Of a stretch of DNA of 64,000 nt, positions 20,735 to 54,332 are shown piece after piece. A program made the translations under genes and the position numbers. The stretch lies in contig JAPKAV010000005.1 of NCBI GenBank assembly GCA_028825115.1, forward strand, positions 1,563 to 65,562. Reading direction: 5' to 3'. Each line of letters begins with the position of its first letter. Within the stretch, counting starts at the first letter, position 1. Origin of the DNA: Candidatus Nanopelagicales bacterium (GTDB lineage Bacteria; Actinomycetota; Actinomycetes; S36-B12). The notes beneath the pieces are model-generated. The model searched no databases, was not told the origin of the DNA, and worked only from the letters and a program-made list of their open reading frames with translations.

Positions 20735-22072
20735 CTACACCCGGCGTAACAGGGCAAAAAACATGGCATCCGTGGAATGAACATGCGGCCAGAGCTGAAC
20801 ACATGGTCCTTCTCCTAGATTACTCACTCCCGGGAACAGTGATCTTGCGTCTTCGAGTTGAACATTGGCTCTCGCGTGAAGAACACTCTCCACGACAGCC
20901 CATGTTTCCTCCAAGTAGGGCGTGCACGTGACATAGGCAATGATCCCGCCGACTCGCGTTGAATCGATGGCCGCAAATAGTAATTCCTCTTGCAACTCGG
21001 TCAGTTCGAGTGTTTGCTTCTTGGTTTTGCGCCAACGCGCCTCAGGTCGGCGACGCAATGCTCCCAACCCCGAACAGGGAGCATCGAGTAGTACCCGGTC
21101 AAAGAATCGATTACCCCAAGGACGCTCTCTCGCGTCGCCGGTTAGCAACGTCGCGGAAGGCCCAATGATCTTGCTCATCAGATCCACTCGATGTTTGTGT
21201 AGATCCACTGCAATGAATTCGACTCCAGAAGGTACCGAGTCAGAAATCAGCGCAGCTTTTCCTCCCGGACCTGCGCACATATCCAGCCACGCACTTTCAG
21301 GCCCGGTTGGGGCAGCCAATAAAAATGCCTGTGCCACTAGCTGACTGCCCTCATCTTGAACAATAGCGCTACCATCGCGAACCTGATCAAGTTCGAGCGG
21401 AATTACGTCAGTGAGAATTCGTGCCTGCTTACTCCAAAGCCCAGAGATAGTCCCCTCAATCTCCTGGTCGCCTTCGCGCACCGCGATGACCGGATGTGCG
21501 GCAGTGTTATTTGATTGCAAGAGTCTTTCCAGGTCGGGTAACGGAAGCCCATTACGCATTAATGATTCCTCGAAGGCCTGCACAATCCAGTCTTGATGAG
21601 AGTAACGAATTCCTAGGGTCAAGGTTTCGGCGTCGAACTCAGACGTAGTGATGCAGCGAAGGACCGCGTTGACAAAACCAACGCGCGCCTTTACATGCCC
21701 CGTTTCTTTGCCCTTGGCAGTCACTCGAGCCAAGGCTGCGCAAGTGTCCACCGCCGCGTGGTCGGGTACCCGCATTGCGTAGATCTGGTGGATTCCGAGC
21801 CGCAGGATGTCAATAATTTCCGGCTCTGTGTTCGATAATGGGCGTGATGAACATTGCTGTGCCATCGCGTCGTAAAGCATTTGATTGCGCAAGACACCGT
21901 AAGCAAGTTCAACACTAAAGGCAGCATCTCGACCATTTAGCTTGTATTTCCGTAACACCTGAGGAAGCGCTAGGTTGGCGTAGGCGCCTTCATCTCGCAC
22001 CAAACGCAACAACTCTAGAGCTGCCATGCGTGGCTGATCGCCATTGGGATGCTCCTTTGCTTCATCCTCCAT
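20735..22072 (-). CDS. rsmB: 16S rRNA (cytosine-C5) methyltransferase, RsmB/Sun family
   Basis: NusB-like N-domain plus NOL1/NOP2/Sun core (DMCAGPGGKA, LDAPCSGLGALRRRPE, YVTCT). Start moved to ATG 22072, which overlaps the fmt TAA (TAATG). Confidence 0.85.
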   Translation of the reverse strand: MEDEAKEHPNGDQPRMAALELLRLVRDEGAYANLALPQVLRKYKLNGRDAAFSVELAYGVLRNQMLYDAMAQQCSSRPLSNTEPEIIDILRLGIHQIYAMRVPDHAAVDTCAALARVTAKGKETGHVKARVGFVNAVLRCITTSEFDAETLTLGIRYSHQDWIVQAFEESLMRNGLPLPDLERLLQSNNTAAHPVIAVREGDQEIEGTISGLWSKQARILTDVIPLELDQVRDGSAIVQDEGSQLVAQAFLLAAPTGPESAWLDMCAGPGGKAALISDSVPSGVEFIAVDLHKHRVDLMSKIIGPSATLLTGDARERPWGNRFFDRVLLDAPCSGLGALRRRPEARWRKTKKQTLELTELQEELLFAAIDSTRVGGIIAYVTCTPYLEETWAVVESVLHARANVQLEDARSLFPGVSNLGEGPCVQLWPHVHSTDAMFFALLRRV

Positions 22073-22998
22073 TAGAAAAATTTCACCTCTTCCGCGCGCA
22101 GTCCACGCATCCAATCTGCGCCCAACATGAATTTTTTGCCCGGTGGTTTAACGAGATTCAATTCCAGGGCATAGGTCGCGCTGCCCACGAATACGCCTTT
22201 GTCGATCATAAAAACGGCTCCCGGATCAAGCTGGATATCACGATTGGGGGACACGGGACCGATTGACAACGAAATCTCTTGTCCACTTATCACCATGGTG
22301 GTCCACGTTCCCGGTTTCGGCGTCATCGCACGAATCCGACGGTCAATTTCAATAGCCGGAAGCTGCCAATTTATCCGGGAGTCAGACTTTTGTAACTTAG
22401 GTGCATAAGTTGCTTGATCGTGGTGTTGTGCAATTGGTGTAATCATTCCGGCTTCTACAGCATCTAGGGTTTGCCTCAGCAAGTGTGACCCTGTGTCGGC
22501 AAGCCGAGCAAGCAGCGCCCCACTGGTGTCCTTCGGATCCACCAATTGCGTTACATGGCCAAGGATCGGACCGCTGTCCATTCCTTGTTCGATTCGGAAG
22601 GTTGTAGCTCCCGTAATTGTGTCACCGTGCCAAATGCAGTGCTGAACGGGAGCTGCGCCACGCCACTCCGGCAGTAGTGAGAAATGCAGGTTGATCCAAC
22701 CATGTGCGGGAATGTCCAACATGGTCCCAGGGATCAACTGGCCGTAGGCCACCACGGGGATAGAGTCAGGTTGTAGTTCTCGAAGTACCGCATCAATCTC
22801 GCAGATCGAGTCCGGGTACAAGACCTTGATGCCGTATTTTTCGGCTAACTCATGTACCGGACTTGGTTGCAATTCACGCCCCCTCCCGGCTCTGGCCGGA
22901 GGTTGGGTGATTACGGCCAGGACGTCGTGCTGAGATGAAATCAACGCTTCCAGAGCTGGCCGCGCCACATCGGGGGTCCCAGCGAAAACTAATTTCAA
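22072..22998 (-). CDS. fmt: methionyl-tRNA formyltransferase
   Basis: MKLVFAGTPDVA..., INLHFSLLPEWRGAAPVQ. Confidence 0.93.
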   Translation of the reverse strand: MKLVFAGTPDVARPALEALISSQHDVLAVITQPPARAGRGRELQPSPVHELAEKYGIKVLYPDSICEIDAVLRELQPDSIPVVAYGQLIPGTMLDIPAHGWINLHFSLLPEWRGAAPVQHCIWHGDTITGATTFRIEQGMDSGPILGHVTQLVDPKDTSGALLARLADTGSHLLRQTLDAVEAGMITPIAQHHDQATYAPKLQKSDSRINWQLPAIEIDRRIRAMTPKPGTWTTMVISGQEISLSIGPVSPNRDIQLDPGAVFMIDKGVFVGSATYALELNLVKPPGKKFMLGADWMRGLRAEEVKFF

Positions 22999-22999
22999 T

Positions 23000-23542
23000 T
23001 TACATCCACTTGTGCGAAATTGCGTGCGGACTTGTTTTCACGACTAAGTCGTCCCCGAACCACTCACTAGCCCGGATCTCCTTCATGGCTTCTTTTCGCT
23101 CCTCTGGTCCGAGGCGGTCAATGAAAATGATTCCGTCAAGGTGGTCCGTCTCATGCTGGACGCACCGAGCCATGAGATCGGCGCCAAACAACTCGATTGG
23201 TTCACCATGCATATTGAAACCCCTTGCGATGAGACTTCGCGAGCGCGCAGTATCAAATGAGAGTCCCGGAAGTGACAAACACCCTTCCTCCCCTAGTTCT
23301 GTGTCATCGGAAAGTTCCAAAGTCGGGTTCACAACGTGACCCAGCTCTTCCTCAACCCAGTAGGTAAATACGCGAAGGGAAACACCCAATTGAGGTGCCG
23401 CCAGTCCCACGCCTGGCGCGTCTTGCATAGTGTCGGTGAGATCTGCCACCAATTTGCGCAATTCCTTATCAAAATCCACAACCTCTGCAGCGGGGGTCCG
23501 CAAAACCGGGTCGCCGAAAATTCTAATAGGTTGGATCGCCAT
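23000..23542 (-). CDS. def: peptide deformylase
   Basis: GVGLAAPQLG, EGCLSLPG, HETDHLDG metal-binding motifs. Start taken at ATG 23542 (MAIQPIRIFGDPVL). Confidence 0.93.
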   Translation of the reverse strand: MAIQPIRIFGDPVLRTPAAEVVDFDKELRKLVADLTDTMQDAPGVGLAAPQLGVSLRVFTYWVEEELGHVVNPTLELSDDTELGEEGCLSLPGLSFDTARSRSLIARGFNMHGEPIELFGADLMARCVQHETDHLDGIIFIDRLGPEERKEAMKEIRASEWFGDDLVVKTSPHAISHKWM

Positions 23543-23571
23543 ATTACAAGTGTAGGACATGACCTACCGCA

Positions 23572-25533
23572 TCAGAAATCACGCGGATCGATTTGGATTC
23601 GCACAAATGAAGATTTCGGATCAGCCGAGCGAGTTCGCATGATGTAAGTCAAAACCTCGGTCAGAGCCTTACCCTGCGCCCGAGGCACCATGAGAAAAAC
23701 TTGTGAAGGATCTCCTTCAATCGGTCCTAACAATCGCGCTTGAATTTTTTCCTGTGCACTCGAGGCGACGTCCATTACGGCATCACGGTCCCCGATCAGT
23801 AGTGCCACTCGAGCCAAAGGCGCCAAATGAGCCTGGGCGCGATCGATCAACTCACGCTCAGCAAACCATGGGCTATCCCAACGGGCTAAAGCTTGGTTTT
23901 CTCTGCTTCCCGGATCGCCCGTGAGCACAACTGGTGCGCCGACCCTGGACCTCACGGCCGCTGAAAACCCTCGGCGAGCCAACGACTCACTGGCCGTTAA
24001 GGAAATCGAGTGTGATGCCATATCCAAAATCACAACAGCGGCGAATCCATTTTCCGCAAAAGGCTCTGCACCCTGAGTTGCGACCACAATGCGCGGCTGC
24101 GCATCAACATTGGCGATCACGTGCTGCTGCTGTGACCACAGCACAGGTGTCCCCGCAAAGGCCCGCTCTAACTCTTCGGCTGTTCGTTCGGCGCCAATCG
24201 CAAGTGCCTTGATTTTTCTTCCACCACAGGCGCACTTCCAACCACCGGATCCGCAACGGCCACACAGTACCTGCTCTTGGGAATGATCAGCCTGTGTAAA
24301 TCGAATTGCTCCACCGCAGGCGCAGACAGCTCGCTCACCGCAGTGGGTGCACAAAAATGCTGGGATATATCCGCGTCGACCCACAGATACCAACACTGGT
24401 CCAGCCGGAAGTGAGTCCTTAATGGCCTGCCACGCCAATCGTGGGATTCGAGATTGATGTGGATCACGCTCGACAGCAGTGTCAGTCAGCGTGCGGACAT
24501 GTGAGCGAAAGATCTCGACGGCAGACTTTTCGGCAGTAATGCTTTCGCACCATCCCGACTCGCACCATGAGGCTGTTACTACTGACCGAATGTAGCCGCC
24601 GACGATCAGTGAGCAGTCAGATTGGTGACTGCGCAAAGCAGCTACCTCTCTGGCATCCCAATAAGGTGCATGCGGATCACTATACGCATCATTAAAATCG
24701 TCCCACATAATTATGGCCTTTAGATTGTGAACCGGTGCAAATACCGCGGACCGAGTTCCAATCACGATCTTTGCACTCCCCGAACGCACCTCGAGAAAAT
24801 TTTGATACCTCTGGCCCTGACCCAAGTGATGAGAAATAATTCCAGCGTCAGTCATCAATGCCACTAGCCGCTCAATGGACGAGGCGTCAGGGACGAGAAC
24901 AATCACTCCGGCCGCGGAGTCGTGCGCCCGAACAGCATCAACGAGTGCCGCTATTTCCTGCCACCAAGATGATGCCGGCGCGCTACACCAAGCTGCCCGA
25001 ATCCGATCCCCCGACCTTAATTTGAATATGAGTTCTGATCCCCGCGCGTACCGAGCCCATGAATCATTTTCTTGGGGTGCCTTATCGACGATGCTCTCGA
25101 TCTTGTGGGCGCCGACGGCCTTAGATTTATTGGGAACGGCTGCTCGTACTACATCCCAGAACATTCCGACATAACGCTCGGCAACACCGTGTACTAATTC
25201 AATCGTCTCAGCAGTGAGTGCGGGACCTACTGCGCGCTCAATGAAAGCTAGCTTTGCGAACTCTGAATTCATGATCCTGTCGATAACAATCGCATCGGCT
25301 AATTTTCCAGCAAAACGCACCCGGACTCGATCTCCGACCTGGCATTGCGAATCGATGCTTGCTGGGACCAGATAATCAAAGTCTCGATCAAGATGGGACA
25401 CAGGAACGTTGACCCGAACTCGAGCTACCGGATTCACCCCAGCAGGGGCAATAATCTTCTTCTCACGCACTTGCGCTCGTTTTCGCACAGCCGGTAGATC
25501 AGCCAGCAAGAGGAGCTGATCACCCGTTTCCAT
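23572..25533 (-). CDS. priA: primosomal protein N' (PriA) homologue with degenerate helicase motifs
   Basis: 653 aa. 3'-DNA-binding N-domain (PVSHLDRDFDYLVP), Cys-rich zinc region (CTHCGERAVCACGG...CGRCGSGGWKCACGG) and conserved position after metK. No GxGKT/S motif is present, and WDDFND replaces DEEH. Confidence 0.8.
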   Translation of the reverse strand: METGDQLLLLADLPAVRKRAQVREKKIIAPAGVNPVARVRVNVPVSHLDRDFDYLVPASIDSQCQVGDRVRVRFAGKLADAIVIDRIMNSEFAKLAFIERAVGPALTAETIELVHGVAERYVGMFWDVVRAAVPNKSKAVGAHKIESIVDKAPQENDSWARYARGSELIFKLRSGDRIRAAWCSAPASSWWQEIAALVDAVRAHDSAAGVIVLVPDASSIERLVALMTDAGIISHHLGQGQRYQNFLEVRSGSAKIVIGTRSAVFAPVHNLKAIIMWDDFNDAYSDPHAPYWDAREVAALRSHQSDCSLIVGGYIRSVVTASWCESGWCESITAEKSAVEIFRSHVRTLTDTAVERDPHQSRIPRLAWQAIKDSLPAGPVLVSVGRRGYIPAFLCTHCGERAVCACGGAIRFTQADHSQEQVLCGRCGSGGWKCACGGRKIKALAIGAERTAEELERAFAGTPVLWSQQQHVIANVDAQPRIVVATQGAEPFAENGFAAVVILDMASHSISLTASESLARRGFSAAVRSRVGAPVVLTGDPGSRENQALARWDSPWFAERELIDRAQAHLAPLARVALLIGDRDAVMDVASSAQEKIQARLLGPIEGDPSQVFLMVPRAQGKALTEVLTYIMRTRSADPKSSFVRIQIDPRDF

Positions 25534-25568
25534 ATGCGCCTAATTGATCACCCGCGGGAAATCTGAAA

Positions 25569-26771
25569 CTAATTCTTGATCGCAGCCGCGAGTAAATCTG
25601 CACGATCCACCCGTTCCCAGGTGAAAAGTCCACCTTCTGTCATGCGACCAAAGTGACCGTAGGCCGCGGTTGGGCGATAAATCGGCCGCAAGAGCTCCAA
25701 GTCCCGAATTATCGCGGCAGGACGAAGATCAAAGACGTTTAGGACCGCCTGTTGAATTTGCTCATCGGGCACAACACCAGTGTCAAAAGTCTCAACGAAA
25801 ACTCCCACAGGATGCGCTTTACCAATTGCGTAAGCCACTTGAACTTCACACCGGGTCGCCAAGCCAGCCGCCACCACATTTTTTGCAACCCACCTCATTG
25901 CGTAGGTAGCTGAGCGGTCCACCTTTGACGGATCCTTGCCAGAAAATGCGCCACCGCCGTGACGAGCCATGCCGCCGTAAGTATCAACGATAATTTTTCG
26001 ACCAGTAAGTCCGGCGTCACCCATAGGTCCACCCACTACAAAGTTTCCGGTGGGGTTCACAAGCAGCAGAACTTTAGATGAATCCAAGTCCACATTTTCC
26101 AAGATCGGGTCCACCACAAATTTTTTTACCTCAGGCGACAGCGTTCCGTCCAGATCAACGCCTTCGGCGTGCTGGCTGCTCACCACTATTGTCTCAATGT
26201 GAATGGGTTGGTCATTTTCGTCGTATGCGATCGTGACCTGGGTCTTGCCATCCGGCCGCAAGTAGCCCATCTGGCCGGACTTACGCACAGCCGATAACTG
26301 CTGGGCCAACTTGTGAGCGAGCGAGATGGGTAGTGGCATTAGTTCGGGTGTATCCATGCATGCGTACCCAAACATCAGCCCTTGGTCACCGGCACCTTGA
26401 CGGTCTAATGGATCGGCGCTGCGACCCTCACGTTCCTCAATTGCGTCATTGACACCTTGGGAAATATCGGGTGACTGCTGCCCGATAGATACGGATATAC
26501 CGCACGACCCGCCGTCGAATCCTTTTTCGGAACTGTCGTATCCGATCTCAAGAACGGTGTCCCGCACCAAGCTCATGACATCAGCGAAACCTTCAGTTGT
26601 CACTTCACCAGCAACGTGCACCTGCCCGGTCGTGAGCATTGTTTCGACCGCAACTCGACTCGTAGGGTCCTGGCGAATCAGATCGTCGAGAATTGCGTCA
26701 CTGATCTGATCTGCCATCTTGTCTGGGTGGCCTTCGGTCACTGACTCCGAAGTAAATAGACGATGAGCCAC
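25569..26771 (-). CDS. metK: S-adenosylmethionine synthase
   Basis: [48 protein letters not shown]. Confidence 0.97.
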
Positions 26772-26808
26772 AGGACTCCCCTTTTCATTTTCGAGTGTAT
26801 TTGGGCAA

Positions 26809-28041
26809 CTAGATTTTACTTTTGCGCGAACCTGAGTCTACCTGATCCAGCAGCTGGGCAAGCCGATGAACCACAGCGTGGCCCACATTTAGTTTGGATC
26901 CCTTGATTGGCGCAACGGCATGATCAGGTTCAATGAACAGGACTTCAGTGTTCTCTGATCCAAATATTTCGCCGTTGCTCACATTATTGACCACAATTGC
27001 ATCTGCGCCTTTCGCCGCCAGCTTTCCGGATCCAAGTGCGATCAAGTCTTCGCGGTTGCTCGAGGTTTCAGCAGCAAATCCGATAATAATTGGCAATGTT
27101 CCCAAAACTCTCTGCCGACAAATATCCGTCAAAATATCTGCTGTCGGCTCAAGCTCAAGATTCTGACCACCGTGCGCCTTTTTGATCTTGGCGGTTGCCT
27201 GTTGTGCGGGCCGAAAATCTGCAACCGCGGCCGCCATGATGACACCATGGGGTTGCCCACCCATAAGGTCAATGAGGGCTTTATGCATATCCGCACTGCT
27301 TTTTGCTTGAACCACTTCTGCCCCGGCAGGTGGATCAATGTCCATATGCCCAGCAACGAGGGTTACCCTCGCACCCGCCGCGAGTGCCGCTCTCGCCAAA
27401 GCGACGCCCTGCTTGCCACTACTCCTATTGCCTATGTAACGCACCGGATCCCAATCTTCTTGGGTCCCGCCCGCACTAATGACAATGTGCCGGGCGGCAA
27501 GTGCGCCAGTATTCGCATTGAGCTGGGCCTCCAGGGCATCAAAAATTTCTTGTGGGGCCGGAAGCCTGCCTTTTCCACTATCGGTTCCTGTCAACGGACC
27601 TGTATCCGGTTCGAGAACTATGTAACCGCGGCTGCGCAAACTCTCGACATTGGCTCGTGTTGCCGGGTGTTCCCACATTTGCGTATGCATAGCGGGGGCG
27701 AGCACCACGGGGCACGTAGCGGTCAAAAGAATGTTGGACAATAAATCACTTGCTATTCCATGCGTCGCCCGAGCCATAAAGTCAGCGGTTGCTGGGGCAA
27801 TCACTACAAGATCCGCGCCAATTCCTTCTGCGACATGGGTTACGTTTCCACCGCCATCCCACAAGCTGGTATTGATCGGTTTACCCGAGAGCGCCTCAAA
27901 TGTTGGTTCACCGACGAAACGCAGTGCATTCGATGTAGGAACAACGCTCACTTCATGTCCTGCTCGCACGAGCAGGCGCAACAATTCCACCGATTTGTAT
28001 GCCGCTATGCCGCCGCATACACCCAGGATTACCCGAGGCAA
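26809..28041 (-). CDS. coaBC: bifunctional phosphopantothenoylcysteine decarboxylase / phosphopantothenate--cysteine ligase
   Basis: [18 protein letters not shown] flavoprotein domain plus the CoaB domain ([25 protein letters not shown]). Start is uncertain. TTG 28041 lies 1 nt after the rpoZ stop; the ORF-track start at 28104 overlaps rpoZ by 62 nt. Confidence 0.88.
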
Positions 28042-28042
28042 G

Positions 28043-28366
28043 TTAGTCCTGCTCAACCTCGGCGCTTGCAGCAGCGAGACCGTTGTCGGTGCCGCCGGAT
28101 GCAATCGGTGATTCAGGGAATGTTCGTTCAGAAGTCAAAAGCCCCGCGTCAATCTCACGAAGGGAAATCGACAGTGGTTTCTCCTGCGCATGGGTCTCAA
28201 CAAGCGGCCCGATGTATTCAAGGAGTCCCTCACCCAACTGTGAGTAGTACGCATTGATCTGGCGAGCACGCTTAGCGGCATAGCTGACCAGGGAAAACTT
28301 TGAATCAGTTTTGGTCAACAGGTCGTCAATGGAGGGATGGGTAATGCCTTCAGGGCGTGCGTTCAT
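28043..28366 (-). CDS. rpoZ: DNA-directed RNA polymerase subunit omega
   Basis: [32 protein letters not shown] is canonical omega. Confidence 0.9.
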
Positions 28367-28956
28367 GAATCCTCATTTCGGGGGTCAGCCATTAACTCTA
28401 GCAAAGCCTGGGCCGTGTGGGTCACATCGGAGTTCACCAGAACGTGATCAAATTCAGAAATCGCGGCCAATTCCTCGTGTGCTATTTTTAATCGGGTCGA
28501 TAAAGCCGCCTCGTCTTCGGTCCCTCGGCCTCTGAGCCGGGCGTCTAACTCGGCAACACTCGGGGGTGCAATGAACACTAAAGTCGACTGCGGTGCACGC
28601 TCTCGTACTTGGCGGGCCCCCTGAACTTCGATCTCCAAGATCACTGGCACACCAGCTTGGCGACTGGCCTGGACCGGATCGCTGGGCGTTCCGTATTTAT
28701 TTCCTGCATATTGCGCCCACTCCAGCATCTTGCCGGTCTCAACCATCCGGGTGAATTCCAGATCAGAGACAAAAAAGTACGAGGTGCTCTCACGTTCCCC
28801 CGCTCGCGGAGCCCGTGTAGTCGCTGAGACCGAGAGCCACATCTGAGGGTTCAACTCAAGTGCTCGAGCCACCACAGTGCTTTTTCCTACACCGGATGGA
28901 CCCGATACCACGATCAGTGGTGCGATGTGGTCTTGGTCAGGACTTATCTCATTCAT
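28363..28956 (-). CDS. gmk: guanylate kinase
   Basis: P-loop [12 protein letters not shown], then [18 protein letters not shown] overlaps on both sides. Confidence 0.93.
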
Positions 28957-29639
28957 GCTGAACCAAGTTCTCGAGCAATTGCATCAGCGGCTTCTTTCAA
29001 ATTCGGGCTGCCAGTAATGGGTCGTCCAATTACGAGTAGATCTGCCCCAGAATCAAGTGCCTCCTTCGGCGTCATTACTCGCTTTTGGTCGCTGGGCACC
29101 GACCCTGCGGGGCGCACGCCCGGGGTAATCAGGATTATCCCGCCACCCACTTCCGCACGAACCCGAGCAACTTCATGTGGTGAACACACGATCGCTCTGG
29201 CGCCTGCCGCAACGGATGAAGCAGCCTGCCGTACTACCGTGTCCTGTGCCGGAGTGCAGATCCCCACTTCGGCGAGCACATGGTCATCTAGGCTTGTCAA
29301 CACGGTGACAGCGGCAACCAAGGTCTCGGGTAATTCCTTACACGCCGCTCGCATCATGTCAGGTCCTCCGGAGGCATGCACGGTTAGGTACTTTGGCGCA
29401 TACCGGGACAGGGCTGCTGCAGCTCCCGCAACAGTATTAGGAATGTCGTGTAATTTCACATCAAGGAACAGATCACAACCACTCTCGCGGACCACCTCGA
29501 TTGCGTCTGCGCCATTGCGATAAAAAGTTTCTAATCCAATTTTGAGCGTGGAGACAACCTCCTGCGTCTGCCAAACCCACTCTCGCAGTACTTCAATTTT
29601 TTGTGCATCAAGTGCCACAGCAATTGGAGCTGTTCCCAT
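28953..29639 (-). CDS. pyrF: orotidine 5'-phosphate decarboxylase
   Basis: 228 aa OMPdecase (LFLDVKLHDIPNTV, lysine motif, ...LVIGRPIT). Confidence 0.9.
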   Translation of the reverse strand: MGTAPIAVALDAQKIEVLREWVWQTQEVVSTLKIGLETFYRNGADAIEVVRESGCDLFLDVKLHDIPNTVAGAAAALSRYAPKYLTVHASGGPDMMRAACKELPETLVAAVTVLTSLDDHVLAEVGICTPAQDTVVRQAASSVAAGARAIVCSPHEVARVRAEVGGGIILITPGVRPAGSVPSDQKRVMTPKEALDSGADLLVIGRPITGSPNLKEAADAIARELGSA

Positions 29640-29663
29640 TAAATGCCTTCCTTTTCACACTGG

Positions 29664-30710
29664 CTATTCAGAGATGAAATCCCAGTCCTGTTCACTTTCA
29701 TCTTTGGACTCACCCATTTCGTCTTCGATAACGGCCTCAATCACTTCTCTGTGCGCGAACGAAATAGCTTGCGTGAGGCTTTCGAAGCCGCGATTGCGTA
29801 GTTCTTGCTCCAATTCTCTCTGAATTCGCATTGGTGCCCCTGGGTCGTTAAAGATTGAAGTGCCTACAGAAATTGCGCTAGCACCAGCAAGAACCATTTC
29901 GAGGGCATCTTGGCCAGTTCTGACCCCGCCCATTCCAATAATGGGCAAATTGGGCAATGCGCTTCGGATCTGCCAGATACAACGCACCGCAATTGGCCGG
30001 ATCGCAGGGCCAGAAAGTCCTCCGGTCACACCCGCGAGGGCCGGGCGCATCGTCTGCGTATCGATGACCATGCCCAAAAGCGTGTTTATCACCGACACGC
30101 CAGTCGCGCCCGCCTGCGATACTGATGTTGCAATCTCAACAATGTCTGTGACATCGGGCGACAACTTCGCAAAAATGGGGATCTTGTTATCGCTATTTCG
30201 CCGGACAGTTTGAATTATTTGCGCGGAAATATCGGCCCGACAGGCAAACACTTGACCGCTGTCTTCCACATTGGGGCAAGAAATATTGACTTCAATTGCG
30301 TCGAAACCTCCTGCGACGCGGAGCTTGGCAGCAACTTTGCCAAATTCGTCAGCTGTTCTACCGGCAATGGAAACGATAGTGCGCGCTCCCCGCTGCTGTA
30401 ACCAAGCAAGGTCAGTTTCCAGAAAACTTTCGACACCAGGGCCTTGTAACCCGATCGAGTTCAACATGCCACTCGGAGTTTCCGCCATGCGTGGCGTTGC
30501 TCGGCCGGATCGCGGTGCCAACATGATGCTCTTAGTGACGATGCCACCGATCGCAGTGATGTCAAAATAGTTGTCGAGTTCGCGTCCGGCCGCTGCACAA
30601 CCGGAAGCTGTCAACACGGGTGACGACAACTCAAGTGAACCCAAATGGGTCCGCAGATCGAATGTTGATTCAGGTGAGGGTTTGACCGTTGAAATTATGG
30701 TTGGCGTCAC
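29664..30710 (-). CDS. pyrD: dihydroorotate dehydrogenase, class 1B catalytic subunit
   Basis: SPVLTASGC, catalytic Cys in EVNISCPNV (class 1), GGLSGPAIRPIA, IGMGGV. GTG 30710 overlaps the pyrK TGA (GTGA) and has GGGGAGGGG upstream. Has an acidic C-terminal tail. Confidence 0.9.
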   Translation of the reverse strand: MTPTIISTVKPSPESTFDLRTHLGSLELSSPVLTASGCAAAGRELDNYFDITAIGGIVTKSIMLAPRSGRATPRMAETPSGMLNSIGLQGPGVESFLETDLAWLQQRGARTIVSIAGRTADEFGKVAAKLRVAGGFDAIEVNISCPNVEDSGQVFACRADISAQIIQTVRRNSDNKIPIFAKLSPDVTDIVEIATSVSQAGATGVSVINTLLGMVIDTQTMRPALAGVTGGLSGPAIRPIAVRCIWQIRSALPNLPIIGMGGVRTGQDALEMVLAGASAISVGTSIFNDPGAPMRIQRELEQELRNRGFESLTQAISFAHREVIEAVIEDEMGESKDESEQDWDFISE

Positions 30711-31591
30711 GATCGCGGCCCCTCCCCACCCCAAGTACCCTCTGGGATTGTGCCAATGTCGGCCCAGCGAACCCGATCACCTCTGAAAACAGGGCCCTCG
30801 ACACAGGAGCGGAGCATGCGGGTTACACCGTCTTCACCGATTACGGGTAGCACGCAGGTCATGCAAACACCAATCCCACAGGCCATGGACTCTTCGACCG
30901 AACACTGACTAAAAATCTTCCGCGTCGTGCACTCCTCGGCGACACTGGCCAACATCGGCATCGGGCCACACGCGTAAACGACATCAACTTTAGATGAATC
31001 GAGGGTATTAATTAAGCCGTCAGTCACCCTTCCGCGGATTCCTGCCGTGCCGTCTTCCGTGGCCAAAGTCAACGAGGTTGATACACGTTTGAGATCAAGA
31101 CTTCCATAAAGCTTTTCCTCGGTGGATGCCCCAATAATCGAGTCAACCCGGCAACCACGTTCACGCAAAGCTTGCGCCAACATGATTAATGGCGCCGCGC
31201 CGTAACCACCACCCACAAGAACGCAGGTGACGGGTTTGGTGGGAAGCGTAAACGGTTTGCCCAATGGTCCGACCAAATTTACGGGATCGTGGCGCCGCAA
31301 TTTAGTCAGCCATTGCGAACCCTTACCCACAGGGGAGACAATAAAATCAAGCGTTCCACCATACATTCCTCGAACTTGCACACCTTGAATTGCGAAAGAC
31401 CTGCGAAGAACCATCGAACTTTCTTCGCCGCCCATGCCGACGGTCACGAATTGCCCAGGTCGGGCTCGCTCAGCTAACCCGGGAGCAGTTACCGACATGA
31501 GGAAGTAGTTACCTGATCGCTGCACATCAAGCACTTCACCCAGTACCTGCATCGCACCCAAAGTTGCACTCTCACTTGCACCCACGCTCAT
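30707..31591 (-). CDS. pyrK: dihydroorotate dehydrogenase electron-transfer subunit (FAD/2Fe-2S)
   Basis: FNR-like FAD/NAD domains (LRRSFAI, VLVGGGYGAAPL) and the C-terminal cluster motif CGIGVCMTC...SCVEGPVF. Confidence 0.88.
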   Translation of the reverse strand: MSVGASESATLGAMQVLGEVLDVQRSGNYFLMSVTAPGLAERARPGQFVTVGMGGEESSMVLRRSFAIQGVQVRGMYGGTLDFIVSPVGKGSQWLTKLRRHDPVNLVGPLGKPFTLPTKPVTCVLVGGGYGAAPLIMLAQALRERGCRVDSIIGASTEEKLYGSLDLKRVSTSLTLATEDGTAGIRGRVTDGLINTLDSSKVDVVYACGPMPMLASVAEECTTRKIFSQCSVEESMACGIGVCMTCVLPVIGEDGVTRMLRSCVEGPVFRGDRVRWADIGTIPEGTWGGEGPRS

Positions 31592-31600
31592 AGGACCACG

Positions 31601-32075
31601 CTACACGTTGTCCCAGTTCATACCTTGTACATGCTCTTGAATGGACTTCACACCTTGCTGGTCGTGCAGTAAGGAGTCGATACCCTGCACTACTGCAGCC
31701 AACCCTTGCACCATTGCGATGCATGGAACTCCACCAAGAACCGCGGCGGTGTGAATTTCATATCCATCTCTTCAAGGGCCAATGCCATACGGGGTGTTAA
31801 TGACCAGGTCAATTCACCGGCGTTAATTAAATCCACCGCTGTCGGCTCTCCACCCGGGCCTACGCCCTCAAATTGCTTTCTGGTCACCCGCGCAGGTACA
31901 CCATTGCGTTGCAAAATTTCGGCGGTGCCTTCCGTCGCAACAATCTCGATACCGAGGTCTGCCCGGTCAAAAAGACTGCTTCACCAAAGGCCGTCCCGCA
32001 CGCACCGAACCCCTTACCAACGAGCGAATATCCGTCTGCGATTACCAATACAGCCCTAGCCACACTGCCCATCAC
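31601..32075 (-). pseudogene. carAB: carA'-'carB fusion remnant (carbamoyl-phosphate synthase deletion scar)
   Basis: My minus-strand translation has three segments. 32075 to about 31962 reads [38 protein letters not shown] (CarA N-terminus). About 31959 to 31815, in another frame, reads [44 protein letters not shown] (CarB C-terminal MGS-like domain). After a 1-nt loss near 31813 it reads [44 protein letters not shown]..., with an in-frame TGA at 31772-31774 and the native stop at 31601-31603. Confidence 0.85.
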
Positions 32076-32241
32076 ACACTCATCTCACTTTCGAGTAACT
32101 TCGTCAATTTTTGATGACCTGCGCACGTATTAACAACCACTCCAGTTTTCTCGACGGGTCTTTCTCAGATCCGGCATAATCGTGAAAAGGCCCAATAACA
32201 GGCGCGATCGTATCGGCGATCGCCTCACCGTAGACCAATTT

Positions 32242-33543
32242 TCATGCATTGAGCACGCCACCTTGGACCTGATGTATGCCATTGAAAAAAACATCGGTGA
32301 CTGACACCGGAAGGGTCATGCCCGCGTACGGTGTATTTCCCGACAGTGATGCGAGTTGTTCTGCAACTACCAAGCGACCTTGGTCAGGGTCGATGAGGAC
32401 TAGGTGGGCTCTTTCACCAACGGCCAGCGGTCGACCGTGATTGATTGCACGACCAATTCTTGCGGGTGTACTCGACATCCGATCACTTAAGGTACGCCAA
32501 TTCCAATTTGGTACATCTCTCATCGCAGATACGACCACGCCCAGTGCAGTTTCTAGTCCAAGCATTCCAAATGCCGCATTGTCCCATTCACAATCCTTGG
32601 CTTCATGTGGATGGGGAGCATGATCGGTTGCAACTATGTCGATTGTTCCGTCTACCAAGGCTTCGCGTAATGCGAGCGTATCCGCTCGAGACCTCAACGG
32701 TGGATTGACTTTGTACACCGGATCAAAACCGGCAACAAGGTCCTCGGTGAGTAACAAGTGGTGCGGGGTCACTTCGGCACTAACTCGCACTCCCATTTTC
32801 TTGGCCCATCGGATTATTGCGACGCTTCCTGCGGTTGACACATGGCAAATGTGCAGCCTCGAGTCTACGTGAAGGGCAAGAAGTACGTCGCGGGCAATGA
32901 TTGCCTCTTCCGCCACCGCGGGCCACCCCGTCAAGCCGAGTATTCCCGACAGTTCACTCTCGTTCATCTGGGCACCCTGTGTCAATCGTGGGTCCTGTGC
33001 GTGTTGGGCGATAACGCCATCAAAAGTTTTTACATACTCTAAGGCTCTGCGCATGAGCAGGGGGTCAAATACGCAGTGCCCATCATCGCTGAATACGGTC
33101 ACACCGGCAGCTGAGCCAGCCATGGCTCCCAACTCGGCAAGAGCCTGGCCGCGCAGCCCAATACTTACGGCTCCAACGGGGAACACATCGACTAAACCGC
33201 TCTCCCGGCCAATTCGCCACACTTGCTCGACCACGCCGGCCGTGTCGGCAACCGGTGCTGTGTTGGCCATAGCAAATACAGCCGAGAATCCACCCAGAGT
33301 CGCCGCGCGCGAACCCGATGCAATGGTTTCGGCGTCCTCTCTCCCTGGCTCGCGTAAATGAGTGTGCAGATCAACAAATGAGGGCAGACAGACCCGTCCT
33401 TTTGCCTGCACCGCGTCGAGATTTTCGGGGTCAAGCCCAATGCCAATCTCCGCGATACGCCCATTAATTATTCGAATGTCTTGTTCTTCTTCACCGTATG
33501 GCCGCGCACCCACAATCAAATATGAATTAAGCGACACTGACAT
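32242..33543 (-). CDS. pyrC: dihydroorotase
   Basis: 433 aa amidohydrolase ([25 protein letters not shown]). Confidence 0.92.
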
Positions 33544-34465
33544 TTCCCCCGATCAGTAAGTACATGCTTGCCATGCGCACTACGAGCCCATTGACCACCT
33601 GTTCTGTAATCACACTTTGCGCACTGTCTGCTACCTCAGCCGTAATTTCCACACCGCGGTTCATCGGTCCAGGATGCATCACGATCGCGTGCTCAGGCAG
33701 TTCCCTGGCTCGTTTACGGTTAAGACCAAATGTTCGGCTGTATTCAAGTTCACTCGGGAAGAAAGTTCCATTCATACGTTCCTGTTGAACCCGTAACATC
33801 ATGATTGCATCCAACTCAGGCAGGTAAGCATCGAGGGAGTAGCTCACTTCACACGGCCAGTTCTCAATGCCCACAGGCAATAAGGTGGGTGGGCCGATCA
33901 CTATAACTTTGGCACCGAGAATTCCCAAAAGAAAAATATTGGAACGCGCAACCCGCGAGTGTAAAACGTCGCCCACAATTCCAATTGTCAATCCGGCGAA
34001 ATCTTTTGCCCCCGGGCGCAGGTGCGCTCTAAGAGTAAATGCGTCGCCGAGCGCTTGAGTTGGGTGCTCATGTTTTCCATCACCAGCATTAAGCACACTT
34101 GATTCCAGCCACCCGGCATGCGCCAACCTGTGGGCCGCTCCAGGAGAAGGATGACGCACAACAATCATGTCGGCGCCCATCGCATTTAAGGTCAGTGCCG
34201 TGTCCTTTAGACTCTCGCCTTTGGAAACACTCGACCCTTTTGCAGAAAATGTTACTACATCCGCGGAGAGTCTTTTTGCAGCTCGCTCAAATGAAATCCT
34301 AGTGCGAGTAGAGTCTTCATAGAAAAGATTCACAACAGTTCGGCCGCGCAATGTCGGCAAAATTTTGGTGCCACCATCGGTTACTTGGTTCAACTCGAGA
34401 GCCGTGTCAAGAATTCGCAGTGTGCCTGCCCGGCTCAGTTCCTGCACCGAGAGGAGGTGCTTCAC
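33527..34465 (-). CDS. pyrB: aspartate carbamoyltransferase catalytic subunit
   Basis: STRTR carbamoyl-P motif ([11 protein letters not shown]), [14 protein letters not shown]. Confidence 0.95.
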
Positions 34466-35049
34466 AGTTGCTCCGTCGTTGATTGAATTACGATTTGATC
34501 AACCGAGTCAATTTCGCTTATCTGGACGGAAACTTTTTCATTCAACGACGTGGGCAGATTTTTCCCTACGTAATCAGGTCGAATAGGCAATTCCCGGTGT
34601 CCCCGATCAACCAGTACTGCCAGTTGAACAACCGCCGGGCGCCCATACTCATTCATTGCGTCAAGCGCCGCTCGAATGGTGCGCCCAGAAAACAGAACAT
34701 CATCGACCAAAATCACCGTTTTTCCGTCAATCCCTCCAGCAGGAAGGCGCGTCTGCTCCAAGGCTTTGGACGGACGCATTTGCAGGTCGTCCCGAAAAAG
34801 GGTGACATCCAACGAACCCACCGGAATACTGATTTTTTCGATGTCACGAATATTTTTAGCCAGTCGCTCGGCAATAGGGACACCGCGGGTGGGAATGCCT
34901 ATGATCACAATATTCGTGACGTCCTTCACATTTTCAACAACTTGATGGGCAAGCCTGCGCAGCATCCGGGAAATATCCTCTGGATCGGCGACCATCCGAT
35001 TGTTTGTTCGGGAAGAGCCCGCGGATGCGCCCGGTGACGACTCGCTCAT
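34462..35049 (-). CDS. pyrR: bifunctional pyr operon regulator / uracil phosphoribosyltransferase
   Basis: 195 aa. PRTase motif [18 protein letters not shown], plus [13 protein letters not shown]. First gene of the pyr block. Confidence 0.93.
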
Positions 35050-35053
35050 GTGT

Positions 35054-35092
35054 TCGCCCTTCCCCGCCTCACTGGACGAGTCTTAAAGGTGT
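35054..35092 (-). promoter_or_regulatory. candidate PyrR-binding RNA hairpin overlapping the pyrR ribosome-binding site
   Basis: The minus strand reads CCUUuaagaCUCGUCCAGUGAGGCGGGgAAGGgcgaacacAUG. GUCCAGUGAGGC is one mismatch from the PyrR box core UCCAGAGAGGC as I recall it. Stems CUCG/CGGG and CCUU/AAGG would enclose it and pair with the purine-rich SD region. Confidence 0.5.
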
Positions 35093-35145
35093 GTGATTTA
35101 GATTGAAATGTGTGACCCTAAACTTATCTGATCCTTTTGATGGCG

Positions 35146-36579
35146 CTAGACACCACCACCGCGCCCCGCGGTTCCCATTTTGTGAACGCGCATGCCGTTA
35201 GTCGTTCCTGGCACACCAGGTGGTACTCCTGCAACAATCACCACGCGCTCCCCTGCGCTCGCTCGCCCAATATCTAATAACGCTTTATCAACCTGCGTCA
35301 CCATATCGTCGGTATGGCTTACTTGTGGGACCAGAAAGGTTTCAACTCCCCACGTCAACGATAACTGGCTACGGACCCGAGGATTTGGTGTAAACGCAAG
35401 TAGGGGGGTGCGGGCTCGCCAACGTGCGATCAACCGAGCCGATCTACCGGTTTCGGTGAATGCAATTAGATGAGAGGAACCGGTTCCCTTCGCGACGTCG
35501 ACCGCGGCGTGCGTAAGAGCTCGGGCAGTCGAGCCAGTCGGCGAGTCCTGCAATGCAGGAATTCGGTCGAGGGCCTCTTCTTCCAAGTGCTCAATGATCG
35601 TGGACATAGTCGACACCACATGCGAAGGTCGGGCACCAATGCTTGTCTCACCAGATAGCATGAGCGCATCTGCCCCGTCAAGGACCGCATTTGCTACGTC
35701 ACTTACTTCAGCCCGCGTGGGACGACTCTCGGTAATCATCGAATCAAGCATTTGCGTTGCCACAATGACCGGTTTTCCCGCCTCGCGACACATTTGGATG
35801 GCCCTTTTTTGCACGAGTGGAACCATCTCGAGTGGAAGTTCAACCCCAAGATCCCCCCGTGCAACCATGACTCCGTCAAATGCGGCGATGATGTCTTCAA
35901 GGTTGTCTACCGCTTGTGGTTTTTCTACCTTAGCAAGGACGGGGAGTCGCACTCCCTCTTCATCCATGATTGCGTGTACGTCATGAATATCTGCCGAAGA
36001 ACGCACAAATGACAGTGCGATCACGTCGGCGCCATTACCCAACCCCCAGCGCAAATCTTCGCGATCTTTTTCCGAAAGTGTGGGCACGCTCACAGCTACT
36101 CCGGGCAAATTGAACCCTTTGTTATTGGAGACAATTCCACCATCAATTACTCTGGTATACACCCGTGGGCCAACGATTTTAGTTACCTGCAATTCGATCC
36201 GGCCGTCGTCTACGAGGACCATGTCTCCCGGGTTGACGTCACCCGGTAGTCCGGTAAAGGTTGTGGAAACCATATGTGCGTCACCCGGACATTCTTCGGT
36301 CGTGACAATGAATTCCTCTCCCACCATTAGTTCAACTGGCCCTGAAGAGAATCGCCCGAGTCTGATTTTTGGTCCTTGAAGATCAACCAAAATCGCCACA
36401 CTTCGCCCTGATTCTTCTGAGGCCTGCCGAACCCACTTGCAGGCGTCCACATGATCTGCATAATCTCCATGGGAGAGGTTCAATCGAGCGACATCCATGC
36501 CCGCTGTGACCAACTCCAAGATAGATTCCGCGCTTGCAGTAGCTGGGCCAAGGGTTGCAACGATTTTTGCTCTTCTCAT
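35146..36579 (-). CDS. pyk: pyruvate kinase
   Basis: MRRAKIVATLGPA..., MVARGDLGVE, full 477-aa PK with C-terminal domain. Confidence 0.95.
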   Translation of the reverse strand: MRRAKIVATLGPATASAESILELVTAGMDVARLNLSHGDYADHVDACKWVRQASEESGRSVAILVDLQGPKIRLGRFSSGPVELMVGEEFIVTTEECPGDAHMVSTTFTGLPGDVNPGDMVLVDDGRIELQVTKIVGPRVYTRVIDGGIVSNNKGFNLPGVAVSVPTLSEKDREDLRWGLGNGADVIALSFVRSSADIHDVHAIMDEEGVRLPVLAKVEKPQAVDNLEDIIAAFDGVMVARGDLGVELPLEMVPLVQKRAIQMCREAGKPVIVATQMLDSMITESRPTRAEVSDVANAVLDGADALMLSGETSIGARPSHVVSTMSTIIEHLEEEALDRIPALQDSPTGSTARALTHAAVDVAKGTGSSHLIAFTETGRSARLIARWRARTPLLAFTPNPRVRSQLSLTWGVETFLVPQVSHTDDMVTQVDKALLDIGRASAGERVVIVAGVPPGVPGTTNGMRVHKMGTAGRGGGV

Positions 36580-36644
36580 GCCCGTATCCTACGGTAACCG
36601 ATTAGACATGGGTCGTTCCGACAATAACGCTCTCCAAGAAAGAT

Positions 36645-38099
36645 TCACACAACCAACGGTCGATCAAATGCTGAGATGGGACGGGGCAGGTTGGTCGACC
36701 CCATCAAGAATTTGTCTACTGATGCGGCAGCCGCTCGCCCTTCGGCGATCGCCCAGACAATCAATGACTGGCCGCGGCCGGCATCACCGGCAACAAACAC
36801 TGCGTGCGTCCCCGAAAAGAAATCTGCGTCACGCTTAATAGTGCCCCGCGCATCGAGTTCGAGCCCCAGCTGTTCAACGTAGGGGGCGGGTTCTGGCCCG
36901 GTGAAACCCATTGCGAGCAGGACAACATCCGCCTTGAGAATTTTTTCGGTACCGGGAATAACAGCGAAACTCCCATTCGCGAACTCCACTTCGGCAAGTT
37001 CTATTCCCGAAAGCTTCTGACCGTCCTCGCTCAAGAATCTTTGGGTTGACATCGAGAAAAGTCTTTCTCCCCCCTCTTCATGTGCACTCGAAACCCGATA
37101 AATCATGGGATAGGTCGGCCACGGCGCACTTTCGCTGCGTTCAGCACCGGGATTAGGCATGATTTCAAGTTGGGTCACACTGGCCGCCCCTTGTCGGTGT
37201 GAGGTGCCCAGACAGTCAGCACCGGTATCCCCACCGCCCAGGATCACAACATGTTTCCCAGCAACGTCATAGGGGGACTTCTCTAGGTCGCCTTCCTGCA
37301 CCCGATTGGCCAGGGGCAAGAACTCCATCGCTTGATAGATTCCATCAAAATCACGGCCAGGGACTTCAAGCTCTCGAGCGAGGGTTGAGCCAACACACAT
37401 CACGACCGCGTCATAGCGGTGGCGTAAATCCGAACCGGTCAGATCAACCCCAATCTCGATTCCCGCGCGGAATTTAACCCCTTCGGCTTCGAGCTGGCCT
37501 AGTCGCTGATCGAGATGATGCTTTTCCATTTTGAACTCTGGAATTCCATATCGCAATAAGCCTCCAATCCGGTCCGCGCGCTCGAACACAGCTACCGTGT
37601 GCCCGGCCCGTGCTAATTGTTGAGCAGCGGCGAGCCCGGCCGGACCCGAGCCAATCACGGCGACCGTGCGACCAGAAAGACTTTCCGGTGGCGCAGGGTT
37701 GATCCAACCGGCTTGCCATGCGCGGTCAACAATGGAGACTTCCACTTGCTTAATGGTGACGGGGTCTTCATTGATGCCAAGAACGCAGGCGGACTCACAC
37801 GGCGCAGGACACAGCCTTCCGGTGAACTCTGGGAAATTATTTGTTGCATGAAGACGTTCAATTGCTTGCCCCCAGTCCCGGTCAAATATCAATTCATTCC
37901 ATTCGGGGATCAGATTGCCCAGCGGGCAACCGTCGTGGCAAAACGGAATGCCACAATCCATGCATCGGCCAGCCTGGAGTTCAACATCTCGGGCATCGAA
38001 GTCTTCGTAGACTTCGCGCCAATCCCGAATCCGAATATCTACCGGTCGGCGCTTGGGTAGCTCTCGGTCGGTTGTGAGAAAGCCCCGCGGATCACCCAT
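36645..38099 (-). CDS. gltD: glutamate synthase (NADPH) small subunit
   Basis: N-terminal Fe-S Cys motifs ([22 protein letters not shown]) and the dinucleotide fold [14 protein letters not shown]. Confidence 0.93.
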
Positions 38100-42749: not shown

Positions 42750-43598
42750 TTATACAGGTTCTACTTCGATTTCTTCAACTGGAGCAACCATGACTTCCCG
42801 GCCGGGGCGAATCCGACTCAAAATCACCAAATAGGTCAAAGCACCTAGACCAACCAGGATTGACGTCCACACGTTAAGCCGAATTCCTAGAATTTGATTA
42901 GCCGGATCAATTCGAAGTGCTTCGATCCACACTCGTCCTAGCGTGTAGAGAAGTACGTACAATGCAAAAACTCGCCCGTGCCCAAGGTTAAATCTTCGGT
43001 CAGCCCAAATCACCACTAGCGCAAGTGCGACCAGCCACAAGGATTCATAAAGAAACGTCGGGTGAAATGTCGCGTATTCTGCGAAGCCCTTGGGTCGATT
43101 TGCCAGTGAGATCTCCAGTCCCCACGGCAATGTCGTGGGTGACCCAAAAAGTTCCTGATTGAAATAGTTTCCCAGACGTCCAATTGCTTGGGCGAGTGCA
43201 ATCCCTGGAGCGATCGCGTCCGCGATCGGAGGTAATGCAACCCCACTGCGACGAGCACCGATCCAGGCGCCTACGCCGCCGAGCATTACCGCTCCCCAAA
43301 TCCCTAACCCGCCGTCCCAGATCCGAAGTGCTGCCGCGAATCCTCGACCTTGTTCGCCGAAATATATTTGCCAGTCGGAGAGGACGTGATAGAGACGACC
43401 CCCAACGATTCCAAATGGAACCGCCCAAATGGCGATGTCGGTGATAACGCCTGGCTGACCACCACGTGCCTCGTAGCGCTTATTTCCTAATACGACGGCA
43501 ACGATTATCCCTAGCACGATAAACATGGCGTATGCCCGGATAGGGACCGGGCCTAACTCCCATACTCCGGTCTCAGGGCTGGGAATGTAAGTCAACAT
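42750..43598 (-). CDS. lgt: prolipoprotein diacylglyceryl transferase
   Basis: 282 aa polytopic protein with Lgt motifs (GGRLYHV, GRLGNYFNQELFG, HPTFLYESLW). Confidence 0.93.
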   Translation of the reverse strand: MLTYIPSPETGVWELGPVPIRAYAMFIVLGIIVAVVLGNKRYEARGGQPGVITDIAIWAVPFGIVGGRLYHVLSDWQIYFGEQGRGFAAALRIWDGGLGIWGAVMLGGVGAWIGARRSGVALPPIADAIAPGIALAQAIGRLGNYFNQELFGSPTTLPWGLEISLANRPKGFAEYATFHPTFLYESLWLVALALVVIWADRRFNLGHGRVFALYVLLYTLGRVWIEALRIDPANQILGIRLNVWTSILVGLGALTYLVILSRIRPGREVMVAPVEEIEVEPV

Positions 43599-43616
43599 GT
43601 AGGAAGCAACCAGTCG

Positions 43617-44444: not shown

Positions 44445-44488
44445 GGCTCATCACGCATAACTTGAAGTCTTAGAATATGCGAAGGCCC

Positions 44489-45289: not shown

Positions 45290-45292
45290 AGG

Positions 45293-47355: not shown

Positions 47356-47378
47356 GCTCTTACCCTAGCCGCACCACA

Positions 47379-49518: not shown

Positions 49519-49525
49519 TCCGGAC

Positions 49526-49735: not shown

Positions 49736-49743
49736 GAGCGTAG

Positions 49744-50256: not shown

Positions 50257-50259
50257 TGA

Positions 50260-51795: not shown

Positions 51796-51800
51796 TTGAG

Positions 51801-53673: not shown

Positions 53674-53682
53674 GCCCCCACT

Positions 53683-54318: not shown

Positions 54319-54332
54319 AGAAAACTACTTCT

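Follow-up and report, generated by a model that had tools for sequence, protein, structure and literature searches.

A probable unitary pseudogene of carA and carB, left by a single 3,926-nt deletion in the pyrimidine operon of a Nanopelagicales-like planktonic actinobacterium

We analyzed a 64,000-nucleotide (nt) stretch of DNA (hereafter the window) from contig JAPKAV010000005.1 of a Candidatus Nanopelagicales bacterium (GenBank assembly GCA_028825115.1), concentrating on the point in its minus-strand pyrimidine operon, between pyrC and pyrK, where this type of operon carries carA and carB, the genes for glutamine-dependent carbamoyl-phosphate synthetase (CPSase). Only 472 nt of the two genes remain there (window 32072-31601, minus strand), and this remnant is very probably a genuine unitary pseudogene produced by one deletion of 3,926 nt, with no second carAB in the 64-kb window. 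The syntenic orthologue is intact in close relatives, the remnant has a neutral substitution pattern on the carrier branch only, and its junction is reproduced in independent data.

Loci of relatives were compared by local alignments and BLAST. A genome-collection scan found the nearest species-representative genomes to be metagenome-assembled genomes (MAGs) from lakes, at 82-83% PyrK identity, followed by 'Candidatus Nanopelagicales' MAGs at 65-69%, and the closest match in a metagenome-collection scan stood at 68%; closer relatives came only from a protein index, in which an exact look-up of the window's own PyrK gave no match and which returned PyrK clusters at 92-96% identity under the NCBI name 'Candidatus Nanopelagicales bacterium'. 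Over more than 16 kb aligned, on both sides of the gap, the window is ~96% identical at the nucleotide level to one set of relatives (L165, L173, L174) and ~91.5% identical to another (L167-L172), all of which hold a full carA (373 amino acids, aa) and a full carB (1094 aa) between pyrC and pyrK. The deletion is thereby shown to postdate the split from the ~96%-identity relatives that have carAB. Loci L001-L003 are likewise syntenic with carAB intact, and of the 103 actinobacterial loci retrieved whose sequence extends 4.7 kb or more upstream of pyrK, 100 have full carA and carB at pyrK; two of the remaining three have a full carB with carA undetected by the filter used, and the third is L180, described below. 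Two of these records, L001 and L002 (CAMAVT010000066.1 and CAMCYV010000015.1), are MAG records titled 'Bifidobacterium breve' whose operon is 82-83% identical (PyrK) to that of the window, with the gene order of lake Actinomycetota, and the organism name on them looks wrong.

Alignment to L165, a check of the kind named in the original prediction (an earlier reading of the window from its letters alone), placed both breakpoints against an intact orthologous carAB. The window is collinear with L165 up to position 5702 (window 31963) and again from 9629-9632 (window 31962-31959); the missing DNA amounts to 3,926 nt relative to L165, from carA codon 38 through carB codon 974, close to the roughly 4 kb that had been estimated. 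The last carA base is 31963 and the sequence is unambiguously carB from 31959, which agrees with a predicted out-of-frame join at about 31960; junction bases 31962-31960 probably derive from carB. The join is out of frame because carA and carB lie in different frames and 3,926 leaves a remainder of 2 when divided by 3. The two parental sites share a 4-nt microhomology, GACC (31959-31956), embedded in imperfect 7-mers, TATGACC in carA and TCAGACC in carB, the latter varying as T(C/T)(A/T)GACC; it would fit illegitimate RecA-independent recombination or replication slippage, as an argument from consistency rather than proof. The scar and its surroundings comprise the following features:

32073-32241, minus strand: pyrC-carA spacer, which contains what is left of a bPH_11 (Rv1382-like) gene, its frame shifted by one inserted nt near 32166.
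31963-32072, minus strand: carA stump, which retains the ATG (32072-32070) and 36 2/3 codons from the start of the CPSase small-subunit gene and aligns collinearly, at ~96% identity, with L165 5593-5702.
31956-31963, minus strand: deletion junction, where carA ...GACCGG is joined to carB (G)CAGACCTCGG, from a side-by-side alignment with carA and carB of L165 and L167-L171.
31601-31962, minus strand: carB stump, the last 120 codons, with the MGS-like allosteric domain, the C-terminal tail and the native TAG stop, from a nucleotide alignment to seven intact relatives.
31812-31815, minus strand: secondary lesion, in which an A run has become 1 nt shorter (GAAATT to GAATT), shifting the frame of the carB stump.
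31772-31774, minus strand: secondary lesion in GP[R]RDGYEI, where the arginine codon CGA of all intact relatives has turned into a TGA stop.

At the carA end, alignment to relatives sets the start at ATG 32072 rather than GTG 32075, with 36 full codons and two bases of codon 37 retained; the CarA N-terminus of the original prediction is upheld by profile matches, and its description holds to within one codon. In a profile search the stump matches TIGR01368 at positions 1-31 of 361, and it matches PF00988 (CPSase_sm_chain) at positions 1-29 of 126 only, with 19.6 bits, below the 27-bit cut-off; its orthology is established by synteny and by 96% nucleotide identity to L165 carA. The class-I glutamine amidotransferase (GATase) domain of CarA lies wholly inside the deleted L165 interval 5703-9628, so the stump is a gene fragment and not a functional CarA. 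At the other end, the carB stump reads from 31962 in another frame as far as ...NAGE and, with a -1 shift, onward to ...NWDNV*; conceptually repaired for its frameshift, it yields an MGS domain (PF02142, E = 1.2e-18) and matches PRK05294 at positions 958-1056 of 1058, as expected if, as had been proposed, about the last 120 CarB codons were kept. CPSase_L_D1, D2 and D3, all found in L165, are absent from the window, and two ATP-grasp units and the oligomerisation domain are thus gone from CarB. Since neither a GATase nor an ATP-grasp domain remains, the glutamine-dependent CPSase encoded by this operon is dead. Both secondary lesions reported from the letters alone reappear in the alignments, one as the loss of 1 nt at 31813 (GGTGAAATT to GGTGAATT), not found in intact relatives, and the other as the in-frame TGA that replaces their arginine codon; between them they break the reading frame of the carB stump, so that the MGS-like domain is not in an open frame. 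The native carB TAG is also where it had been placed, at 31603-31601, with the pyrK ATG at 31591, 9 nt further on.

Searching the 63-aa chimeric open reading frame (ORF) that spans the junction against 5.8 billion proteins gave four hits. P0269, on L181 (ENA ERZ27317660, 612 nt), marks a contig 99.0% identical to the window without gaps, with all three lesions (junction, 1-nt deletion and TGA) present, while P0270, on L182 (ENA ERZ27317462, 506 nt; 96.2% identical), comes with the same junction, an intact A run and CGG in place of the TGA. P0271 is a CarA N-terminal fragment without the junction, and the fourth match, P0272, sits on L180. Because L182 has the deletion alone, the deletion is the oldest of the three lesions; the sub-lineage of the window and L181 acquired the frameshift and the stop afterwards. 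The carriers differ from each other by 3.8% in neutral remnant DNA, and a divergence of this size (~4%) makes the carAB-less lineage a long-persisting one.

The same contigs bear on whether the scar is real. The original prediction had listed an assembly collapse among the outcomes that would overturn it, and that objection is answered by two independent metagenome contigs, L181 and L182, which carry the same junction in assemblies from different samples; the scar is therefore not an assembly collapse. Suspicion of an assembly or binning artefact, in which a collapse or mis-join took carAB off the contig and left the chromosome intact, draws on the absence of the window's own genome from the protein index and on the fact that one lesion is a homopolymer indel, typical of sequencing error. 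However, carA codon 37 and carB codon 975 have only 4-7 nt in common, leaving no repeat to collapse, and an artefact could not create the neutral substitutions of the remnant described below. Moreover, only two single-base indels separate the window from its 96% relatives over ~23.5 kb, the 1-nt deletion at 31813 in the remnant and a 1-nt insertion at ~32166 in a dead mini-ORF upstream of it; with no more than these two, both in dead DNA, homopolymer sequencing error is an unlikely cause. The 31813 deletion is also the sole gap in an 11.2-kb alignment to L165, L173 and L174. We regard an artefact as extremely unlikely, and this reading as effectively refuted already.

The fourth hit led to a second allele. 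L180 (ENA ERZ1699696 contig_7328, a 160-kb contig with its scar at 10001-10600) is 97-98% identical on both sides to L167, in which carAB is intact, and 91.5% identical to the window. In L180 the carA-carB join falls on the microhomology TTTTC (L167 5692-5696 and 9609-9613), with ~3,917 nt deleted; the contig keeps 26 nt of carB that are missing in the window, is without 7 nt of carA that the window keeps, and has none of the window-specific substitutions or lesions. As each allele retains sequence that the other has lost, neither is derivable from the other, and the simplest reading of these alignments would be two separate carAB deletions in sister lineages. L180 is apparently an error-prone long-read assembly (~28 indels in 16 kb relative to L167), and we did not interpret its small lesions, its split genes or its apparent in-frame fusion.

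The breakpoints of the two alleles nearly coincide, lying 7 nt and 26 nt apart, for which rough arithmetic gives a chance of ~5e-5 if endpoints fall at random in carA and carB. Such agreement speaks for selection having retained the ends as operon expression signals, namely the carA translation-initiation region and an element at the carB 3' end needed by pyrK-pyrD-pyrF. Yet L165 and L167 differ at third positions no less at the carA end (4/36) or the carB end (20/130) than elsewhere (188/1300), remnant substitutions are even over codon positions, and the remnant has no promoter-like site on its coding strand and no Rfam match; promoter, terminator and Rfam scans of the region returned nothing above chance. 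Microhomology blocks TTTTC and CAnGAC also stand near each other at both sites and could form a local deletion hot spot. With two events to go by, we consider selection on the retained ends unlikely, though worth keeping in view.

Substitutions were polarised with L167 as outgroup, and the proportions of nonsynonymous (pN) and synonymous (pS) change were obtained by Nei-Gojobori-style counts. On the window branch the remnant shows 22 substitutions at the 456 aligned sites counted, distributed 7:7:8 by codon position; for 16 flanking intact genes the figures are 102 changes at positions 1 and 2 versus 246 at position 3. The remnant has pN = 0.041 and pS = 0.070, compared with pN = 0.0086-0.0089 in intact genes (Fisher p = 0.0009 versus the other genes), and this segment, still part of an intact gene on the L165 branch, shows two nonsynonymous and four synonymous changes there (N2/S4). 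From pN, the stump has been neutral, very roughly, for half to two-thirds of the window branch, in agreement with the depth of the L182 split. The earlier claim that the lesions mark a genuinely decaying pseudogene thus finds support in the neutral pattern and in later lesions that are absent from intact relatives and placed in order by L182.

These counts also speak to the idea that the stump encodes a new functional small protein, the candidates being the CarA'-frameshift peptide of 62 aa and, in L180, CarA(1-34) fused to the MGS domain. Gene callers do call these ORFs, L181 retains the 62-aa ORF at 98% identity, and the L180 fusion is in frame as assembled. Besides the neutral substitutions, however, the ORF is shortened to 46 aa in L182, the carB-frame part contains the frameshift and the stop, and L180 is in frame only by virtue of a single additional T in a homopolymer, its assembly having about 1 indel per 600 nt relative to L167. 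We give a new small protein next to no chance.

Separately, the window branch carries about twice the substitutions of the L165 branch (e.g., 250 versus 130 in non-pyr genes; 21000-37665 compared with L165 and L167), an excess that may come from faster evolution of the carAB-less lineage or from recombination of the L165 lineage with that of L167. The coaBC gene (26809-28104) is especially divergent (N23/S52).

Decay extends into the spacer between pyrC and carA. In L001 and L002 this place, the position of Rv1382, is taken by a gene for a 193-aa bPH_11 membrane protein, which in the window's clade is reduced to a 58-aa mini-ORF that begins within the pyrC stop region and overlaps the carA start at TGATG. 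The mini-ORF is called in L167, L168, L171-L173 and L180 (L167:5417-5593; window 32073-32294, minus strand), and it stays open in L165 and L167 thanks to indels that compensate one another. The +1 insertion near 32166 that frameshifts it is found only in the window, L181 and L182, that is, in all three carriers of the window-type deletion, which suggests that translational coupling to carA may have been the sole role of the mini-ORF, one that became pointless once carA was dead. Loss of the 193-aa bPH_11 gene along with carAB was considered and rejected, as carAB-intact relatives have the same ~168-nt spacer.

Turning to the wider locus, the minus-strand gene order is pyk (35146-36579), pyrR, pyrB, pyrC, a 641-nt region without a long ORF, pyrK, pyrD, pyrF, gmk, rpoZ, coaBC, metK and priA. 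In alignment to relatives pyrR, pyrB, pyrC, pyrK, pyrD and pyrF are full length with zero indels, and the statement of the original prediction that pyrB, pyrC, pyrK, pyrD and pyrF look intact is borne out:

34462-35049, minus strand: pyrR, intact, 195 aa; Pfam Pribosyltran.
33527-34465, minus strand: pyrB, aspartate carbamoyltransferase, for which carbamoyl phosphate is a substrate; intact, 312 aa; Pfam OTCace_N and OTCace; window-branch substitutions N4/S12.
32242-33543, minus strand: pyrC, dihydroorotase; intact, 433 aa; Pfam Amidohydro_1 and DHOase; zero indels relative to L165.
30707-31591, minus strand: pyrK, electron-transfer subunit of dihydroorotate dehydrogenase (DHODH); intact, 294 aa; Pfam DHODB_Fe-S_bind; 95.9% amino-acid identity to P0134.
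29664-30734, minus strand: pyrD, dihydroorotate dehydrogenase; intact; Pfam DHO_dh, E = 9e-74; called in relatives at 348 aa from an internal start.
28953-29639, minus strand: pyrF, orotidine 5'-monophosphate (OMP) decarboxylase; intact, 228 aa; Pfam OMPdecase, E = 5e-47.

From the carB stop to the pyrK start, the 9 intervening nt (31592-31600) read CGTGGTCCT in the window and L181 and CGTGGGCCT in all other relatives including L180, a change within the probable pyrK ribosome-binding region in the deletion lineage. Elsewhere, the window has a guanine-plus-cytosine (GC) content of 52-57%, and its minus-strand genes at 42750-57367 are ordinary, seemingly intact housekeeping genes (lgt, trpA/B/C, a two-component system, trpE, hisF/A/H/B/C/D, dnaE and gltB/gltD); no further pseudogenes were noticed in the window, and no tRNA or Rfam matches were found across the 64 kb. 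An arginine cluster, argC-argJ-argB-argD-argR-argH, occupies 1-5268 on the minus strand with overlapping or adjacent gene boundaries. The argCJBD and argH genes are intact, as had been stated, with the caveat that argF and argG are missing from the cluster clade-wide, being likewise missing from that of carAB-intact relatives (L175-L179). Tying their absence to the loss of carAB was rejected, since the argCJBD-argR-argH layout is the same in those relatives.

What the cell does with the rest of the pathway can be gauged from how these genes have evolved. Across the 4.8 kb of pyrB, pyrC, pyrK, pyrD and pyrF there are no stops and no indels, and pN is 0.0089 versus 0.0086 in housekeeping neighbours; were they neutral at the lesion density of the remnant, we estimate that ~10 nonsense mutations and ~15 indels would be expected. 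Background pN and the lack of these lesions indicate that the five genes are in use. We know of no use for pyrB without carbamoyl phosphate, as a matter of established biochemistry, and carbamoyl phosphate is labile and, to our knowledge, not exchanged between cells. Since pyrB requires carbamoyl phosphate and stays under selection, another source of it would be needed. The original prediction had left a choice between another carbamoyl-phosphate source and dependence on external arginine and pyrimidines; the purifying selection seen from pyrB to pyrF makes an internal source likelier than simple auxotrophy for pyrimidines, with no candidate gene in the 64-kb window. The normal source is a single carAB-encoded enzyme common to the arginine and pyrimidine pathways (PMC6245113, a general review of carbamoyl-phosphate metabolism).

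Alternatively, the loss may have been followed by true auxotrophy, with uptake of arginine or citrulline and of pyrimidines, and with the remaining pyr genes as relics that have not yet decayed. Nanopelagicales are genome-streamlined, with several amino-acid and purine auxotrophies known (PMC12817590), and pyrR, which encodes a phosphoribosyltransferase (PRTase)-fold protein, is intact. The pN/pS ratio of pyrBCKDF is, in addition, nominally higher on the window branch than that of other genes (0.22 versus 0.12; Fisher p = 0.036, uncorrected). We read this last difference as noise rather than relaxed selection, as it comes from a lower pS and not a higher pN; relaxed selection on the remaining pyr genes was a candidate that found no support, their pN being equal to background. 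Relics would moreover have had ample time to decay: to go by its pN and by the 3.8% between carriers, the remnant has been decaying over perhaps 60% of the branch or more, and in that time the five pyr genes took on no stops or indels and changed at the housekeeping rate, with pyrB among them, for which a cell lacking carbamoyl phosphate has no known use. We therefore judge true auxotrophy quite improbable.

Several points nonetheless weigh against our preferred account of a carAB deletion offset by another carbamoyl-phosphate source. One, a weak hint of relaxed selection, is the pN/pS difference just given. Another is that neither arcC nor argF nor a second carAB is present in the 64-kb window, so that we can only infer the alternative source. 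Branch lengths are uneven, and recombination or a change in rate may distort the polarised counts. As to mechanism, a microhomology of 4 nt is weak evidence.

Under this account, an uncultivated Nanopelagicales-like planktonic actinobacterium lost 3,926 nt in a single deletion from its pyrR-pyrB-pyrC-(mini-ORF)-carA-carB-pyrK-pyrD-pyrF operon, and the deleted form went to fixation in a sub-lineage whose neutral sites have accumulated ~4% divergence since then. The 472-nt remnant and the mini-ORF drifted neutrally, with the frameshift of the mini-ORF followed by the 1-nt deletion and the CGA>TGA change in the carB stump. Carbamoyl phosphate may be fed from outside the window by a second CPSase, by a carbamate kinase, or by citrulline phosphorolysis through ornithine carbamoyltransferase (OTC), and the separate deletion in the sister lineage suggests a back-up in the clade that would make the loss of carAB tolerated or even favoured. 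Because carAB was deleted twice independently at almost the same nucleotides, its loss looks tolerated or favoured rather than accidental. A further step, that the clade possesses an unrecognised or non-canonical carbamoyl-phosphate route, so that carAB is repeatedly lost while pyrB-pyrF are kept and the near-identical endpoints mark the minimal flanks for operon expression, is one we put forward only tentatively and think rather doubtful. If it is true, carAB-minus and carAB-plus sister strains at 96% identity would offer a natural system in which to study how free-living plankton adaptively lose a central biosynthetic enzyme.

The case stands above routine gene loss in the central role of the lost enzyme, in the continued selection on the downstream genes and in the parallel independent deletion: carAB encodes the entry enzyme common to arginine and pyrimidine synthesis, not a peripheral function. 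Gene shedding and a scarcity of pseudogenes are expected of streamlined freshwater and brackish Actinobacteria. The steps of one loss can here be put in order and roughly dated, from the microhomology deletion through decay of the mini-ORF to the frameshift and stop. In MAG-based reconstructions, a pyrimidine pathway scored as 'nearly complete' would leave the loss of carAB unnoticed, and the prediction that follows is that these organisms make carbamoyl phosphate another way.

Among known systems, the closest is the actinobacterial pyrimidine operon, pyrR-pyrB-pyrC-(Rv1382-like)-carA-carB-(pyrK-pyrD)-pyrF, exemplified by Mycobacterium tuberculosis Rv1379-Rv1385. Gene order, orientation and the overlapping or close gene boundaries on either side of the scar are identical to those in M. 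tuberculosis and L001-L003, but in the window carAB is cut to 472 nt, and the bPH_11 gene had already become the 58-aa mini-ORF in the window's clade. How a cell can still profit from pyrB once it has lost the CPSase of the pyr operon is illustrated by bacteria with several routes to carbamoyl phosphate, such as Bacillus and Lactobacillus plantarum with two CPSases, or those in which the arginine deiminase pathway provides a carbamate kinase and a catabolic OTC; unlike in these bacteria, no such gene is seen in the 64-kb window, and the second route is here a prediction.

Unitary pseudogenes derived by deletion are known from reductive and streamlining evolution, as in Mycobacterium leprae (PMC8790229) and in a gene-loss model for streamlined plankton (PMC12817590), and Nanopelagicales are described as streamlined, with many auxotrophies and few pseudogenes expected (PMC12817590). 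The carAB remnant resembles such pseudogenes in having an orthologue intact in close relatives, an inactivating deletion, a secondary frameshift and nonsense codon, and neutral substitution. It differs in that its host belongs to a free-living, streamlined planktonic lineage for which pseudogenes are reported to be rare (PMC12817590), in that the first step of a pathway is lost while the later steps are under selection, and in that the loss occurred twice in the clade. In kind this is ordinary lineage-specific gene loss, but unusually well resolved, with the order of its lesions, natural carriers and intact sister genomes all at hand.

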